Notes under the pieces: generated by a model
Told to the model about the DNA's origin: nothing
Database searches by the model: none
The model's input: only the letters and a program-made list of their open reading frames with translations
Shown here: positions 20,967 to 26,260 of the stretch, piece by piece
Position numbering within the stretch: position 1 is the stretch's first letter
How the letters are laid out: the number at the start of each line of letters is the position of its first letter
Made by a program: the position numbers and the translations under genes
Assembly (NCBI GenBank): GCA_963704755.1
Contig: OY969938.1
Coordinates: forward strand, 3,720,001-3,752,000
DNA: 32,000 nt
Source: an uncultured Chloroflexia bacterium
Lineage (GTDB): Bacteria > Chloroflexota > Anaerolineae > Anaerolineales > Anaerolineaceae
Direction: 5' to 3'

Positions 20967-21123
20967 CCTTAACTTCCTGGTGTTCAATCGATCCTGTTGC
21001 CAGGAAATATGGTTCCCCGGCGGATGCCCCCAGTCGTTTGTCGAGACAAATGTTCCCACGATCTGATCTTATTTTACCGGAGGAATCGGCATTTTTGGAC
21101 AGTCAATTTCTTGGTTTACGGTT

Positions 21124-21178
21124 CCCAAATTTGAGGTATTTGCGAGGGCGAAGCCCTCGCAAATACCTCAAATTTGGG
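21124..21178. repeat. Hairpin palindrome: 26-bp perfect stem, GAA triloop, apex GCGAAGC
   Basis: CCCAAATTTGAGGTATTTGCGAGGGC, then GAA, then GCCCTCGCAAATACCTCAAATTTGGG. Exact; checked base by base. It lies between divergent gene starts. Confidence 0.95.
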
Positions 21179-21253
21179 TTTCTATTCATCAGGTTGGGCA
21201 GTTTCCCCTTCTCAATGCAAGCGATTATAATCAGCGCGGGAGAGAATACGCGC

Positions 21254-22156
21254 ATGGAAAATGAAACAGTTCACCTGAAACCGGGTTACTGGCAGGCCTG
21301 GCTGCTGGCTTCACGGCCGAAAACGCTGCCGGCTGCGGCGGCGCCGGTAATTATTGGGATAGGATTGGCCGTGGGAGAAGGGGTGTTCCGTTTTGGCCCG
21401 GCGCTGGCCGCGCTGGCGGTGGCGTTATTGCTGCAAATCGGGGCCAATGTTTCCAACGATTATTTCGATTATCAGAAAGGCGCGGACACCGATCAGCGCC
21501 TGGGGCCAACCCGGGTGACCCAGGCCGGGCTGCTGCCGCTCAGGCATGTGGTGGCCGGCATGCTGGTGGTGTTTGGCCTGGCCGGCTTGATCGGTATCTA
21601 TCTGATCGTGGAAGCCGGTTGGCCGGCGGCCCTGATCGGCGGTCTGGCTATTCTCTCGGCGCTGGCCTATACCGGCGGGCCTTATCCGCTGGGCTATCAT
21701 GGCCTGGGGGAATTGTTTGTCTTTCTATTCTTTGGCCTGGCGGCTGTGGCCGGGACGTATTTCGTCCAGGCGCTGTCGTTCAGCCCGGCCGCGCTGTGGC
21801 TGTCGCTGCCGGCCGGCTTGATCGCCGACGGTATTCTGACGGTCAACAACCTGCGCGACCTGGAGACCGACCGGATCTCGGGCAAGCACACCCTGGCTGT
21901 GCGCATGGGGGAGCGCGGCGCGGTGATCGAGTACTGGACCTGGTTGGTACTGGCTTACCTGTGCGTGGCCGGCGCCGTGCTGACCCGGGCAGTTACCCTC
22001 TGGGCCCTGTTGAGCTGGCTTTCTATCCCCATGGCGGTCAGCCTGGCCCGCCGGGTGGCGACTATCCGCGGAAGGAAAATGAACGCCCTGCTGGCCCAAA
22101 CTGGCCAGTTGGAGCTGGTCTTTGCGCTGCTGCTGGCGCTGGGGTTGGTGATATAG
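21254..22156 (+). CDS. menA: 1,4-dihydroxy-2-naphthoate polyprenyltransferase (UbiA superfamily)
   Basis: WQAWLLASRPKTLPAAAAPVIIGIGLA and NDYFDYQKGADT...RLGPTR are MenA-type motifs, and the protein is polytopic. The ORF-track start 21038 would translate through the 21124-21178 palindrome. ATG 21254 has a GGGAGAG SD about 10 nt upstream. Confidence 0.8.
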   Translation: MENETVHLKPGYWQAWLLASRPKTLPAAAAPVIIGIGLAVGEGVFRFGPALAALAVALLLQIGANVSNDYFDYQKGADTDQRLGPTRVTQAGLLPLRHVVAGMLVVFGLAGLIGIYLIVEAGWPAALIGGLAILSALAYTGGPYPLGYHGLGELFVFLFFGLAAVAGTYFVQALSFSPAALWLSLPAGLIADGILTVNNLRDLETDRISGKHTLAVRMGERGAVIEYWTWLVLAYLCVAGAVLTRAVTLWALLSWLSIPMAVSLARRVATIRGRKMNALLAQTGQLELVFALLLALGLVI

Positions 22157-22189
22157 GGGAGATTAGAGAATAGTGGATGAGTAAATAGA

Positions 22190-22254
22190 CACCGAGGCAA
22201 CGAGGGGGGCGGCTGTAGAAAAAGCACCGGGGCAACGAGTGGAGGCGGCTGTAG
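22190..22254 (+). repeat. Two copies of a ~29-nt direct repeat
   Basis: CACCGAGGCAACGAGGGGGGCGGCTGTAG (22190-22218) and CACCGGGGCAACGAGTGGAGGCGGCTGTAG (22225-22254). Confidence 0.8.
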
Positions 22255-22332
22255 GGTGGGTGCAGGGCTCGTTGATCACACTGGCAATGGCAATTACGTT
22301 TGTCTTATCAGGGCCCGCCCGTAACCCACCAT

Positions 22333-22451
22333 TTAGCGGTTGGCAATTGGCTGTTAGCTTTTAGCGATTAGCTGTTAGCTTTTAGCGATTAGCTGTTCGC
22401 TTTTAGCAATTGGCTGTTAGCTTTTAGCGATTAGCTGTTGGCTTTTAGCGT
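22333..22451 (+). repeat. Tandem heptamer repeat TTAGCNN (~17 units) with a 21-nt super-period
   Basis: The 21-nt units are TTAGCGATTAGCTGTTAGCTT / TTAGCGATTAGCTGTTCGCTT / TTAGCAATTGGCTGTTAGCTT / TTAGCGATTAGCTGTTGGCTT. They are contiguous, with no spacers. Confidence 0.9.
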
Positions 22452-22508
22452 TCATACAATCCCCAGATTGGCCGGAAACACTATATCGGTAGCTGAATGT
22501 ACTTTTTT

Positions 22509-22630
22509 GTCATTGCGAACCCTGGCTGCTTTTGCCAGGGCGTGGCAATCTCAACGCTGGCTATTGCAACAGCCTGCGCGCGTTGAGATTGCATACTGCG
22601 CATCAGCGAAATGTGCCTCCTCGCAATGGC
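22509..22630 (+). repeat. Structured repeat element, copy A (termini GTCATTGCGA...TCGCAATGGC)
   Basis: The terminal 10-mers are complementary at 9 of 10 positions. Internal hairpins are CCCTGGC/GCCAGGG (22520-22540) and GCAATCTCAACGC (22545-22557) with GCGTTGAGATTGC (22580-22592). Confidence 0.85.
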
Positions 22631-22683
22631 AAAAAAGGTGCTGCTACCTAAGGCCCATCCCGGCCAGTCAAAATAGAATGTAG

Positions 22684-22760
22684 GTTGGGTGACGGGCTTG
22701 ATTATGGGTTCGCTGAAATCGATGACATCTTCCCAACCCAAGCTTTGCCCGTCACCCAAC
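22684..22760. repeat. 14-bp perfect inverted repeat GTTGGGTGACGGGC / GCCCGTCACCCAAC with a 49-nt loop
   Basis: Arms at 22684-22697 and 22747-22760. Related GGTGGGT/ACCCACC motifs occur at 22254-22263, 22318-22332, 22781-22795 and 22846-22862. Confidence 0.8.
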
Positions 22761-22917
22761 GATTGCGATAGCCAAACGGGATGGTGGGTTACGGGTAAGG
22801 CTTGGGTTGTTTTGTTGCTAAACATTCCCTTGGCGTTCTATAAGAGCCCATCACCCACCCAACACGTATGTTGTAGCTGGCTTGAGAATTGGCTTCGGTA
22901 GCACAATCCCGCTTAAT

Positions 22918-22995
22918 GTCATTGCGAGCCCTGGCTGCTTTTGCCAGGGCGTGGCAATCTCAACGCTGGCTATTGCAACAGCCTGGGCGCATTGA
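22918..22995 (+). repeat. Structured repeat element, copy B (5' part only)
   Basis: 22918-22985 matches 22509-22576 at 67 of 68 positions. The 3' half of copy A is missing or diverged. Confidence 0.88.
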
Positions 22996-23096
22996 CAAAA
23001 CGACATGGAAAGCAGCGGATCGGCCCGGTCTCCAGACCGAGGCCGCTCTTATTGGCTGGTAGGACGATTGCTTTGATTCAACAAACATGCATGTTT

Positions 23097-23184
23097 GTCG
23101 TTGCGAATAGTTTTTGTGAAGCAATTTCCCTATTTGCCAGTGTTGAGATTGCTTCGTCGGCAAAAAAAGCCTTCTCGCAACGAC
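23097..23184 (+). repeat. Structured repeat element, variant C (termini GTCGTTGCGA...TCGCAACGAC)
   Basis: The terminal inverted repeat is a perfect 10 bp. An internal pair is GAAGCAAT (23118-23125) with ATTGCTTC (23148-23155). It shares the GTTGAGATTGC core with copy A. Confidence 0.8.
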
Positions 23185-23197
23185 ATTTAAGAAAATC

Positions 23198-23223
23198 GTC
23201 GCAGCCAATCTTTTGGCTGCGAC
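23198..23223 (-). terminator. pheT intrinsic terminator
   Basis: An 11-bp perfect stem GTCGCAGCCAA/TTGGCTGCGAC with a 4-nt loop. On the minus strand it is followed by GATTTTCTT. It lies 29 nt after the pheT stop. Confidence 0.7.
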
Positions 23224-23251
23224 AATTGATTGCAGGAATGCCAACAAGGCC

Positions 23252-25798
23252 TTAGCTGCGCAATTTGGCTCCCAGCACCTGGTCCAGGCGACGGACGATC
23301 TTCTGGCGGATCTGGGTGGCCTCCTGAGTGGAGAGGGTGTGATCGCTGGCCTGGTATGTCAGGCTGTAGGCCAGGCTCTTTTTCCCGGCGCCGATCTGCT
23401 CGCCGCGGAAAATGTCGAACAGGCGCACGGCCGTCAGCGCCCGCCCGCCGGCCTGGCGGATGATCGCTTCCACGTCCGCGGCCGGGAGGGTTTCGGGAAC
23501 CACCACGGCGATATCTTCCAGGGTGGGCGGGAAGGTCGGCACCGCGCTGGTCTCGTAACGCCGGGCGGACAGGGCCTGGATGGCGGCCAGGTCGAACTCA
23601 CCGGCCAGGACAGGTGGGTTGAGAAAGCTGTAGCTCTCCTTGACCTGGGGGTGCAGCTCGCCGAAATAGCCCAGGGTGACTTCGCCAACACTGACCCGCG
23701 CGCATTTGCCCGGATGGAAGGCCGGGTGGTCGCCCGGGGTAAAAGTCGCATCCGGAATGTGGACGACTTGCAGCAGCTCCTCGACAATGCCCTTGAGATC
23801 GAAGTAATCCAGGGACGCGCTCTGGGAGGTATCCCAGGCCGGCGGCCGGCGCAGGCCGGTCACGGCCATGGCCACGAATTGGCGTTCTTCCGGTAAAGGT
23901 TCACCCTGGCGGGGCCAGAAGACCGGACCGATCTCGAACAGGGCCAGGCGATCGCGCAGGCGGACGTTCTTTTCGAGCAGGTCCAGGACAGAAGCCAGCA
24001 GGCTGCGGCGCATGGCCGCCCGCTCGGGGGTCAGCGGGTTTTTGATCCAGATGTATTCCCGCGCCGGAGCCTCGCCGGCGGCCGCATCCAGGCGCGCTTC
24101 GCGTTCGGGTGTGGTCAGGCGGTAATTGACCACTTCCTGCAAACCCAGGCGGACCAATACATCGCGCACGCGGTTTTCGGTATCCAGCACGGGGTTGCTG
24201 TGCACCTGAGGCAGTTCGTCGGGCATACGCCGGGCAGGGATCTTCGCATAGCCGTAAATCCGGGCGACTTCCTCCAACAGGTCGGCCTTGCCGACCACGC
24301 CCTCGCCGATGTCCAGGCGATGCGGCGGAGTCTTGGCCAACACTGTGTCACCTTCCACCCGGCAGGTGAATTCCAGGCGGGTGAGAATGGCAGCGATTTC
24401 GGCAGCGCTCAATTCGATGCCCAGGAGGCGGCGGACATCCGCCGGGGTCAATTCCACTTCGGGATCCTGCTGGGGTAGTGGATATTCATCCACCAGGCCG
24501 GTATAGACCTGGCCGCCGCTCCATTCGGCCATGCGGCTGAGGCACATCTGCACCCCTTCCACCGCCAGGGCCGGGTGGACGCCGCGCGAGAAACGGTAGC
24601 CTGCCTCGGAGGCCAGGTGCTGGGTGAGGGTGGTGCGGCGCACGTTGATGAAATTCCAGCTTGCGCCTTCCAGCAGGACGTTGGTGGTGGTGTCGCTGAC
24701 CTCGGATTCCTGCCCGCCCATGACGCCGGCCAGGGAAAGCGGCCCGGCGGTATCGCAGACCAGGATGGTGGTATCGTCTAGCGTACGTTCAACGTCGTCC
24801 AGGGTGGTCAGCTTTTCGCCGGGTTCGGCGGTGCGGGTGATGATGGTGGGCGGGTTGCCGCCCGCACGGCGCACAAGCACGTCGTAATCGAAGGCGTGCA
24901 GGGGCTCGCCGATCTCGAGCATGACGTAATTGGTGGCGTCCACAATGGCGTTGATCGGGCGCATACCGGCCAGGCGCAGGCGGCGCTGCACCCAGTAGGG
25001 GCTGGGGCGTTTCTGCGCGCCGGAGATCAAGCCGAGCACGAAACGCGGGTTCAGTTTGGGGTCCCCGATGCGGATACCGGCTTTGCCGTCGATAGAAGGC
25101 CCACCCTGAGGCAGGTGCGGCTGGGGGCGGTGCAGGGGCTTGCCGGTCAGGGCAGCCAACTCGCGGGCGACTCCCAGGATGGAGGCGTCGCGAATCATAT
25201 TGGGCAGGATGGCGACCTCGAAGACGGCGTCGCCCATGTATTCAGAAAGCGGCATGCCGGTGGGGGCGTCCGCGTCCAGGAGGATGATGCCTTCGTGCTC
25301 TTCGGAGACGCCCAGTTCCTTTTCCGAGCAGACCATGGAAAAGGATTCGACTCCGCGGATCTTGGTACGCTTGAGGGTGGTCAGCACCTGGCCGGGTTGG
25401 TGACCGTCGTACAGGCGGGCGCCTTCGCGGGCGTAGGCCACTTTGATCGGCTGCTGAAGCGGGCCGATGCCCCGGTATTCGAGCAGGTTAGGCGCCCCGG
25501 TCAGCACGGTGATCTCGCCGGTGCCGTCCTGCAGGCGGCAAAGCACCAGCCGGTCGGCGTTGGGGTGCGGGCTGACCTCGTCGATCTGGGCCACGACGAA
25601 TTTATCCGGGTCCCAGCTCAGGCCGCTCACCTTGAACTCGTGCGGCTGATTGGGGTCAAACCCGGCGTAGGGGTCGGGCAAACCGACCAGGCGGATTTCT
25701 TCTACCTCCAGCCCGGCCATGGTCAGCATACTGGCCAGGTCGAGCAGGGGCAGGTCAATGTCGATGTAATCTTTTAACCAGGAAAGGGGAAGGTCCAT
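23252..25798 (-). CDS. pheT: Phenylalanine--tRNA ligase beta subunit
   Basis: 848-aa ORF with a typical PheT N-terminus (MDLPLSWLKDYIDI). The tRNA-binding, B3/4, B5 and C-terminal FDX-ACB-like regions are recognisable by eye. A GGAG SD is present, and pheS lies upstream. Confidence 0.93.
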   Translation of the reverse strand: MDLPLSWLKDYIDIDLPLLDLASMLTMAGLEVEEIRLVGLPDPYAGFDPNQPHEFKVSGLSWDPDKFVVAQIDEVSPHPNADRLVLCRLQDGTGEITVLTGAPNLLEYRGIGPLQQPIKVAYAREGARLYDGHQPGQVLTTLKRTKIRGVESFSMVCSEKELGVSEEHEGIILLDADAPTGMPLSEYMGDAVFEVAILPNMIRDASILGVARELAALTGKPLHRPQPHLPQGGPSIDGKAGIRIGDPKLNPRFVLGLISGAQKRPSPYWVQRRLRLAGMRPINAIVDATNYVMLEIGEPLHAFDYDVLVRRAGGNPPTIITRTAEPGEKLTTLDDVERTLDDTTILVCDTAGPLSLAGVMGGQESEVSDTTTNVLLEGASWNFINVRRTTLTQHLASEAGYRFSRGVHPALAVEGVQMCLSRMAEWSGGQVYTGLVDEYPLPQQDPEVELTPADVRRLLGIELSAAEIAAILTRLEFTCRVEGDTVLAKTPPHRLDIGEGVVGKADLLEEVARIYGYAKIPARRMPDELPQVHSNPVLDTENRVRDVLVRLGLQEVVNYRLTTPEREARLDAAAGEAPAREYIWIKNPLTPERAAMRRSLLASVLDLLEKNVRLRDRLALFEIGPVFWPRQGEPLPEERQFVAMAVTGLRRPPAWDTSQSASLDYFDLKGIVEELLQVVHIPDATFTPGDHPAFHPGKCARVSVGEVTLGYFGELHPQVKESYSFLNPPVLAGEFDLAAIQALSARRYETSAVPTFPPTLEDIAVVVPETLPAADVEAIIRQAGGRALTAVRLFDIFRGEQIGAGKKSLAYSLTYQASDHTLSTQEATQIRQKIVRRLDQVLGAKLRS

Positions 25799-25852
25799 GG
25801 GTTTCTCCGTAAAGCGTAATGAATAGATAAATAGAGAAAAGAGAATAGATGA

Positions 25853-26260
25853 TTAGGAAAGAGAGGGCTGTGAGCCGGGTTCTTTTTCTCCCTGGCGGGT
25901 GCGTTTGAGATAGGCAATATAGCCATTGAGCATGCGGATCAACTCGTCCGCGTCACTGACCAGGGCTTCACGCAGCGGATCTGGCAGGTAGCCCAATTCG
26001 GCAGCCAGGATGAGGTGGCTGATGGTTTCGTCGAGGGAACCGCGGGCGATATAACAAAAATGAATATTTTCTTGATAATAATATCGGCCATATCCTTCAG
26101 CGATGTTGGCTGGAATGCTCTGAGAACTGCGCCGGACCTGGCTGGCCAACCCCCACTTTTCTTCTTGTGGCAAACAAGGTAGAACTTCGCGATATACACG
26201 GACCGCGAAATCCTTTGACCGCCGCCAGACATCCAGCTTGCCAAGACCCTCACTGCTCAA
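25853..26260 (-). CDS. Four-helix-bundle protein (23S rRNA intervening-sequence protein family, TIGR02436-like)
   Basis: LDVWRRSKDFAVRVYREV...LASQVRRSSQSIPANIAEGYGRYYYQENIHFCYIARGSLDETISHLILAAELGYL is the family signature. The ORF track starts at GTG 26269, but the AGGAG SD overlaps that GTG. TTG 26260 lies 8 nt downstream of the SD and is my preferred start. Confidence 0.85.
   Translation of the reverse strand: MSSEGLGKLDVWRRSKDFAVRVYREVLPCLPQEEKWGLASQVRRSSQSIPANIAEGYGRYYYQENIHFCYIARGSLDETISHLILAAELGYLPDPLREALVSDADELIRMLNGYIAYLKRTRQGEKEPGSQPSLS

Follow-up and report, generated by a model that had tools for sequence, protein, structure and literature searches.

A REP-flanked TTAGCNN heptamer array among polar intergenic repeats of an Anaerolineaceae genome

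Long simple-sequence repeats with heptanucleotide units are over-represented in prokaryotic genomes (Mrazek et al., 2007, as summarized in PMC4692102), and Calothrix and Anabaena carry short tandemly repeated repetitive heptanucleotides, known as STRR (Mazel et al., 1990, as cited in PMC4692102). In Xanthomonas, with the unit GGGAATC, and in Nostoc PCC 7120, with the unit GGGGA(C/T)T, the G-rich strand of such repeats is the sense strand after stop codons and the antisense strand upstream of open reading frames (ORFs), and the repeats frequently overlap ORF ends and form convergent pairs (Rehm et al., 2015, PMC4692102). TAACTGA direct repeats, which are found in Beggiatoaceae, Cyanobacteria, and Bacteroidetes, occur in sets of 2-6 copies, most of them only a few nucleotides ahead of a start codon (MacGregor, 2015, PMC4679880). 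The array described here is one of the long heptanucleotide simple repeats, a known class, and shares the polarity published for that class. Two of its features are variant: a 5+2 design of the unit, organized at a higher order of 21 nt, and a specific, oriented tie to REP hairpins. As for REPs, the REPtron of E. coli with its RAYT (TnpA_REP) was reportedly set out by Ton-Hoang in 2012, and REPINs reportedly by Bertels and Rainey in 2011; to our knowledge, expandable TTAGC heptamer linkers or flanks beside REPs have not been described for BIMEs.

The window that we analyzed is a stretch of 32,000 nt from a genome represented by a single 4.87-Mb contig (54.8% G+C), and positions refer to this window unless they are given as genome positions (Table 1). 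A preliminary description of the window had reported a heptamer array of about 17 units with a 21-nt super-period and with variation confined to the last two positions of the unit. The unit listing bears this out, yielding 17 contiguous TT[A/G/C]GCNN heptamers on the + strand, in which the core is TTAGC in 12 units, TTGGC in four, and TTCGC in one, and in which only positions 6 and 7 vary freely. Over positions 22346-22450, TRF returns a period of 21 with 5.0 copies, 90% matches, 0 indels, and a score of 175, and its period-7 row for the array has only 70% matches. Compared with itself, the array is 86.7%, 85.7%, and 89.3% identical at offsets of 21, 42, and 63 nt, and 68-73% identical at other multiples of 7. 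The NN dinucleotides likewise match at unit offsets of 3, 6, and 9 (9/14, 7/11, and 6/8, respectively) and nowhere else. Because NN recurs at every third unit and identity is high at an offset of 21, the real unit of the array is a 21-mer. Identity is slightly higher at an offset of 63, a hint that a single duplication may have been larger.

The array is non-coding, each of the six frames containing 3-5 stop codons, and in this respect, as in its position beside other classes of repeats, the preliminary description was accurate. It was also right to exclude a CRISPR array, since the units are contiguous and spacers are absent. At E <= 1, Rfam gave no family match to the array and two chance-level hits elsewhere in the intergenic gap that contains it. 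No GGG run occurs in the units, and TTAGCNN repeats, which thus lack a G-tract, cannot form G-quadruplexes and do not belong to the G4 subclass. The units of STRR are CCCCAGT, TTGGTCA, and CAACAGT, unlike the TTAGCNN unit found here, and the host, unlike those of STRR, is not a photosynthetic cyanobacterium. Searches of the complete genome with PF00502 and PF00124 gave no match, with a positive Synechococcus control. With a different unit, and with no phycobilisome or photosynthetic reaction-centre gene in the genome, the array is not an STRR in the strict sense. The likeness to STRR drawn in the preliminary description therefore holds in a looser sense: tandem heptanucleotides were first seen in cyanobacteria, and STRR are also dispersed in non-coding DNA as several unit families per genome.

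Comparison with the repeats of Rehm et al. (2015, PMC4692102) is closer. Tandem 7-nt units in many dispersed intergenic copies are common to both, and the TTAGCNN family as a whole shares the polarity of the G-rich strand, the overlap with ORF ends, and the frequent convergent pairs. The published type is defined by at least four head-to-tail 7-nt units, of which our array has 17, and by a distance of no more than about 50 bp from an ORF end, which most of the family respects but which this array, at 176 nt, exceeds. It also differs from the published repeats in being partnerless and not flush with a gene end and in having a 21-nt higher-order unit, and the family differs in having no G-tract, two free positions, and a tie to REP hairpins that is not reported in PMC4692102. 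Like the TAACTGA repeats (PMC4679880), TTAGCNN repeats are intergenic heptamers with a patchy occurrence across distant phyla and long arrays in some genomes; unlike them, our array lies downstream of a stop codon, comprises 17 units, and has a different core.

The array occupies a 1,095-bp gap between a UbiA/MenA-like gene and a convergent pheT gene, beginning 176 nt past the stop codon of the former and ending 800 nt short of that of the latter. Alignments with most relatives of the UbiA/MenA-like protein begin at residues 73-88, and translation of this ORF probably starts near residue 74-88. Repeats of several kinds are lined up in the gap. The 3′ end of a degenerate REP (ACCCACC-AT), which folds weakly (z -0.65), is joined directly to the first heptamer of the array, and the REPIN-like double hairpin farther along has a predicted DNA fold of -41 kcal/mol (z -5.56). 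The 101-nt repeat has further copies elsewhere in the genome, and a small hairpin adjoins the pheT stop codon. An imperfect palindrome of about 90 nt at 23096-23185 carries a GAGATTGCTTCG-type motif, which the genome holds in 12 exact copies, with related ones at genome positions 3206698 and 738346. Beyond the gap, 23 nt upstream of the pheT start, lies an AGAGA/ATAGA-type heptamer array (25821-25865; TRF period 22, two copies), the purine-rich strand of which reads away from pheT, consistent with the genome-wide polarity described below. A gene for a 23S rRNA-intervening-sequence protein (PF05635; 25853-26269) is located between pheS and pheT.

Table 1. Coordinates of the array, of its neighbors, and of the RAYT gene
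Feature	Position	Strand	Remarks
UbiA prenyltransferase family (MenA-like) ORF	21038..22156	+	PF01040, E 3.5e-33; 3′ end toward the array
4-5 phased TAG/TGA heptamers, AGAGA/ATAGA family	22157..22190	+	directly after the UbiA/MenA-like stop, pointing away from the gene
Direct repeat of ~35 nt, two copies, core CACCG.GGCAACGAG	22190..22254	+	
Degenerate REP hairpin, GTAGGGTGGGTG subfamily, ~80 nt plus terminal AT	22251..22332	+	GTAG head at left
TTAGCNN array	22333..22451	+	~5.7 copies of a 21-mer; heptamers ending TT, GA, TG
101-nt dispersed repeat, two copies, 88% identical	22486-22586, 22895-22995		bracketing the REPIN-like hairpin
REPIN-like nested double hairpin, GTAGGTTGGGT head, subfamily related to GTAGGGTGGGTG	22678..22868	+	same gap
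pheT (phenylalanyl-tRNA synthetase beta chain)	23252..25798	-	five PheT domains; convergent with the UbiA/MenA-like gene
RAYT, 190-aa ORF	genome 2916253-2916825		NF047646, 184.7 bits (cut-off 80)

This setting bears on the proposal, made in the preliminary description, that the array is a candidate for phase variation, such that changes in its length would switch or tune a neighboring gene. A long, near-perfect tandem repeat is intrinsically slippage-prone, and the 21-nt blocks speak for past changes in length; both the slippage and the length changes are deduced from the internal structure of the array. However, two convergent genes of housekeeping type face the array with their 3′ ends, no ORF runs across it, stop codons interrupt all six frames, and a search for a promoter-like site adjoining it found none. 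There is thus no promoter or ORF to be switched, and the same repeat recurs at 60 unrelated loci. We regard a contingency locus at this position as highly improbable.

The genome-wide count of TTAGCNN arrays advocated in the preliminary description found 60 arrays of at least four units (31 on the + strand and 29 on the - strand; 394 units), so that the array is not unique in the genome; it is the joint second longest of the 60. Four exact repeats of a 5-mer at a fixed period were found genome-wide at 170 positions for period 7 and 281 for period 8, as against 0-33 for periods 5, 6, and 9-11, which places heptamer repetition far beyond chance. Period 7 thus stands out here as it does in the pattern of Mrazek et al. 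(2007, as summarized in PMC4692102), with the difference that period 8 is equally enriched in this genome. TTAGC/GCTAA is the commonest period-7 core, and permuted cores form 0-4 arrays each, except for the rotation TAGCT and a separate TGTCA family. Gene calling by a codon-usage model gave 3,781 genes covering 79% of the genome, and even so 59 of the 60 arrays are intergenic. In 53 of the 60 (p = 8e-10), the TTAGC strand points outward from the gene closest to it. Arrays at 3′ gene ends sit flush against the stop codon (-18 to +19 nt), and in 13 genes the stop codon itself is supplied by the TAG of the array; at 5′ gene ends they lie mostly 8-80 nt from the start codon. No replication-strand bias was found among the arrays, 25 being on the leading and 35 on the lagging strand. 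The genome has 545 intergenic regions longer than 500 bp, 189 of them longer than 1 kb, and a called coding density of only about 79%; given this low density and these long gaps, its intergenic repeat load is unusually heavy.

In 14-15 intergenic regions, TTAGC and GCTAA arrays form inverted, head-to-head pairs, and our array could accordingly be seen as the surviving half of such a foldback pair whose GCTAA partner was lost or was separated from it by later insertions. The 1,095-bp gap is indeed packed with later-looking insertions, namely the REPIN and the two 101-nt repeats. The stretch between the array and pheT (22452-23251), however, holds neither a GCTAA-type array nor an inverted repeat in which our array takes part, and 32 of the 60 arrays in the genome are solitary, which means that a partner is not required. 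On this evidence, we judge a lost partner to be very unlikely.

TTAGCNN is one of several polar tandem families in the genome, the others including AGAGANN, TAGAGNN, GTGTCNN, and octamers with cores such as CACCG and AACAC. For a general measure of polarity, every intergenic TRF array was read outward from its nearest gene. The outward strand contains more G than C in 96 of the 111 skewed period-7 arrays (96:15) and in 93 of the 109 skewed period-8 arrays (93:16), and the ratio is 75:4 for period-7 arrays less than 100 nt from a gene. Similar ratios were found at 5′ and 3′ gene ends, and array-free intergenic edges, examined as a control, show no G>C skew. A polarity of 96:15 is too strong to be neutral and implies some selection or directional process at gene boundaries. 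A six-frame stop module was considered as a unifying rule and rejected: the polarity of stop codons is much weaker (60:30 for period 7 and 44:30 for period 8) than that of G over C. In the GTGTCAG family, the stop lies on the inward strand. In this genome, arrays of period 8 are no less abundant than those of period 7 and likewise obey the rule of G>C on the outward strand.

In the array under study, G exceeds C on the + strand. The UbiA/MenA-like gene, which precedes the array, is encoded on this strand too, and hence the array reads away from that gene. The agreement with the rule of Rehm et al. (2015, PMC4692102) means that both the heptamer class and its polarity were already known. What is new in this genome is that the rule also holds for units without G-quadruplex potential and for octamers, which indicates that it concerns G>C skew rather than G4 structure or stop codons.

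Such polarity would be expected of a boundary element acting on transcripts, a reading in which the arrays are kept at gene ends for the sake of their RNA content. RNA leaving a gene, as a 3′ UTR or by read-through, would be G-rich and C-poor, and RNA running into a gene, either as a 5′ leader or as incoming antisense, would be C-rich and G-poor, with possible effects on termination, on Rho loading by inward transcripts, on R-loops formed by outward transcripts, or on the structure of leaders and 3′ ends. At this locus, the transcripts affected by the array would be those that read through from the UbiA/MenA-like gene. The strength of the polarity whatever the orientation of the gene, its absence from array-free edges, and the placement of arrays flush with stop codons or shortly before start codons all fit this reading, but our array lies 176 nt from the stop codon rather than flush with it. 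As RNA, the array shows no significant fold relative to shuffled sequence (z -1.9 and -1.0), and no terminator-like site was found at the array. CAGCUAA-type units contain few YC dinucleotides. A sequence with few of these is a poor site for Rho loading. A conserved long hairpin between partner arrays is also unlikely and was set aside as unsupported, the NN positions of head-to-head partners not being kept complementary (0.61 versus 0.54 for shuffled order, with 2 of 15 pairs below 5%). In favor of the boundary reading, the same rule operates in Xanthomonas and Nostoc, most of the repeats of this kind there being transcribed (PMC4692102), and G>C on the outward strand is found in other phyla as well (77:42; see below). 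On balance, we consider a boundary function unlikely for this array.

The second variant feature of the array is its connection with REPs. The genome contains 189 REP family heads of the form GTAGG(G/T)TGGGT, 96% of which are preceded by a pyrimidine, and a stricter head pattern has 121 matches in this genome versus 0-4 in each of 22 congeners. A search with PF01797 gave six matches to Y1 transposases, one of which is the REP-associated tyrosine transposase (RAYT) listed in Table 1. On either side of its gene lie GTAGGGTGGGTGCAGGGC-type REP hairpins of the GTAGGGTGGGTG subfamily, to which the REP fused to our array also belongs. The element adjoining the array is thus a member of a REP/BIME-like family, with GTAG-headed imperfect palindromes in more than 120 copies, a RAYT flanked by such copies, and clusters joined by short linkers. 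The heptamer array, in contrast, is neither a palindrome nor itself a REP.

Of the 60 TTAGC arrays, 26 have a REP arm within 120 nt, compared with 2.5 +/- 1.5 expected from random intergenic placement (1000 trials, maximum 8), and the corresponding counts are 2 of 68 for other heptamer arrays and 7 of 111 for octamer arrays. The association has a direction: 19 of the 60 arrays have GTAG within 16 nt on their 3′ side and two have it on their 5′ side, and co-oriented TTAGC exceeds GCTAA upstream of GTAG heads by 41 to 6. Among the 46 copies of the GTGGGTG subfamily, 11 have TTAGC after their 3′ end as well. The junction ACCCACC-AT-TTAGCGG found at our locus recurs at two other loci as part of a three-heptamer linker between two tandem REPs, and the offsets of REP-array junctions vary among loci. 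Among the 7- and 8-nt arrays of the genome, therefore, only the TTAGC arrays are specifically and directionally tied to REPs, which is a new observation. A general association of TTAGC arrays with REPs was considered and rejected, since in other phyla GTAG occurs downstream of 7 of 148 arrays and upstream of 7 of 148; the tie is therefore a property of this lineage.

One way to read this tie is that TTAGCNN arrays came first and served as tandem targets for the strand-specific, RAYT-mediated insertion of REPs, much as Y1 transposases of the IS200/IS605 type use fixed targets of 4-5 nt. The array at our locus would then be the remainder of a target array after insertion of a REP at its 5′ edge. 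The specificity and co-orientation of the association point in this direction, as do the pyrimidine that precedes nearly every GTAG head, the varied junction offsets, which suggest independent events, and three loci at which REPs are embedded between co-oriented TTAGC arrays (genome positions 2040350-2040640, 2189477-2189800, and 4134300-4134900). Elhai and colleagues are also said to have found, in 2008, that small mobile repeats had inserted into heptamer arrays of cyanobacteria. However, TTAGC occurs within 21 nt upstream of only 43 of the 189 REP heads, and in phase in only 17, so that it is not an obligatory target. Removal of the REP from the split arrays that were inspected does not restore the heptamer register, and at our locus the 5′ flank of the REP is not array sequence. 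For the array at hand, we consider this order of events doubtful.

The tie of TTAGC arrays to REPs and a RAYT gives a concrete pair of enzyme and substrate, and more broadly the arrays might be products or substrates of the REP/RAYT system, either as oriented targets that capture REPs or as linkers at REP flanks expanded by the transposase. We hold this broader proposal to be speculative and unlikely on present evidence; if it were true, it would establish, for this lineage, a mechanistic link between two repeat classes of bacteria, heptanucleotide simple-sequence repeats and REPs. A more remote proposal concerns all 7- and 8-nt arrays, which would owe their outward G-rich strand and the length of their unit to a telomere-like addition of repeats at DNA ends during the repair of intergenic breaks; it seems to us scarcely probable.

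With moderate confidence, we favor instead the explanation that the array is a non-coding heptanucleotide simple repeat that grew by block duplication from the flank of a REP and has no locus-specific role. Growth would have begun with a TTAGC unit flanking, on the 3′ side, the REP hairpin that is still fused to the array, and would have proceeded in place by slipped-strand or unequal-exchange duplication of three-unit blocks of 21 nt and perhaps also of 63 nt. The array would then form part of a selfish or near-neutral load of REP/RAYT-associated repeats in the long intergenic regions of this genome. Seeding from a REP is not the only origin of such arrays, however, as 34 of the 60 have no REP nearby. 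Moreover, because the 5′ flank of the degenerate REP is not array sequence, the locus itself demonstrates neither direction of the relation between REP and array. This explanation also leaves the polarity at gene boundaries (96:15) unaccounted for. As it stands, the array is a fast-evolving non-coding repeat that bears no sign of a locus-specific role, and a locus-specific regulatory function is most likely absent. Its value beyond that of an ordinary repeat is modest and lies in the generalization of the G>C rule and in the link to REPs.

Outside this genome, six exact TTAGCNN units were found in more than 119 records of a collection of species-representative genomes, in phyla that include Bacteroidota, Acidobacteriota, Cyanobacteria, Gemmatimonadota, Thermodesulfobacteriota, Gammaproteobacteria, and Chloroflexota. 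With crude ORF calls, the arrays of other phyla read away from the nearest gene in 82 cases versus toward it in 50 (p = 0.007), and their outward strand has G>C in a ratio of 77:42 (p = 0.002). The TTAGC core is not special in itself: in a large collection of viral contigs, five exact units occur in 58 stretches for TTAGC, 55 for TGACT, 23 for TTGCA, and at least 110 for TTAGA. Control cores thus being about as common, the idea of TTAGC as a universally conserved motif was abandoned.

Closer to home, four exact TTAGC units occur in 13 of 121 sampled genomes of the order, and exact 4-unit runs number 68 in this genome and 0 in nine genomes of the same family. A search with the whole gap against 18 genomes of the same genus gave no match to the array, and the region downstream of pheT in 15 genomes of the genus shows neither the menA-pheT arrangement nor the array in any of them. 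These comparisons mark the TTAGCNN family as a lineage-specific expansion and the locus as not conserved, with no sign of a function kept at this position. The PheT proteins of relatives are 68-74% identical, and menA relatives reach at most 60% identity. The search for strain-level comparators found none: no exact pheT product is on record, and a 26-mer from the flank of the array had no match in metagenome collections. In comparison with these relatives, REPs have expanded in this genome only, and the same is true of TTAGC runs.

In several congeners, a near-consensus promoter (cccttgacat..gatataat) lies shortly after pheT and is followed by a conserved segment with gcggggaaaattt, which may represent a conserved non-coding RNA or the leader of an rRNA/tRNA operon; neither promoter nor segment is present at the corresponding position downstream of pheT in this genome. 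At least one other genome has several TTAGCTG arrays with identical flanks, aagctg before and agtactgatggctgacggc after the array; the array there forms part of a dispersed composite element.
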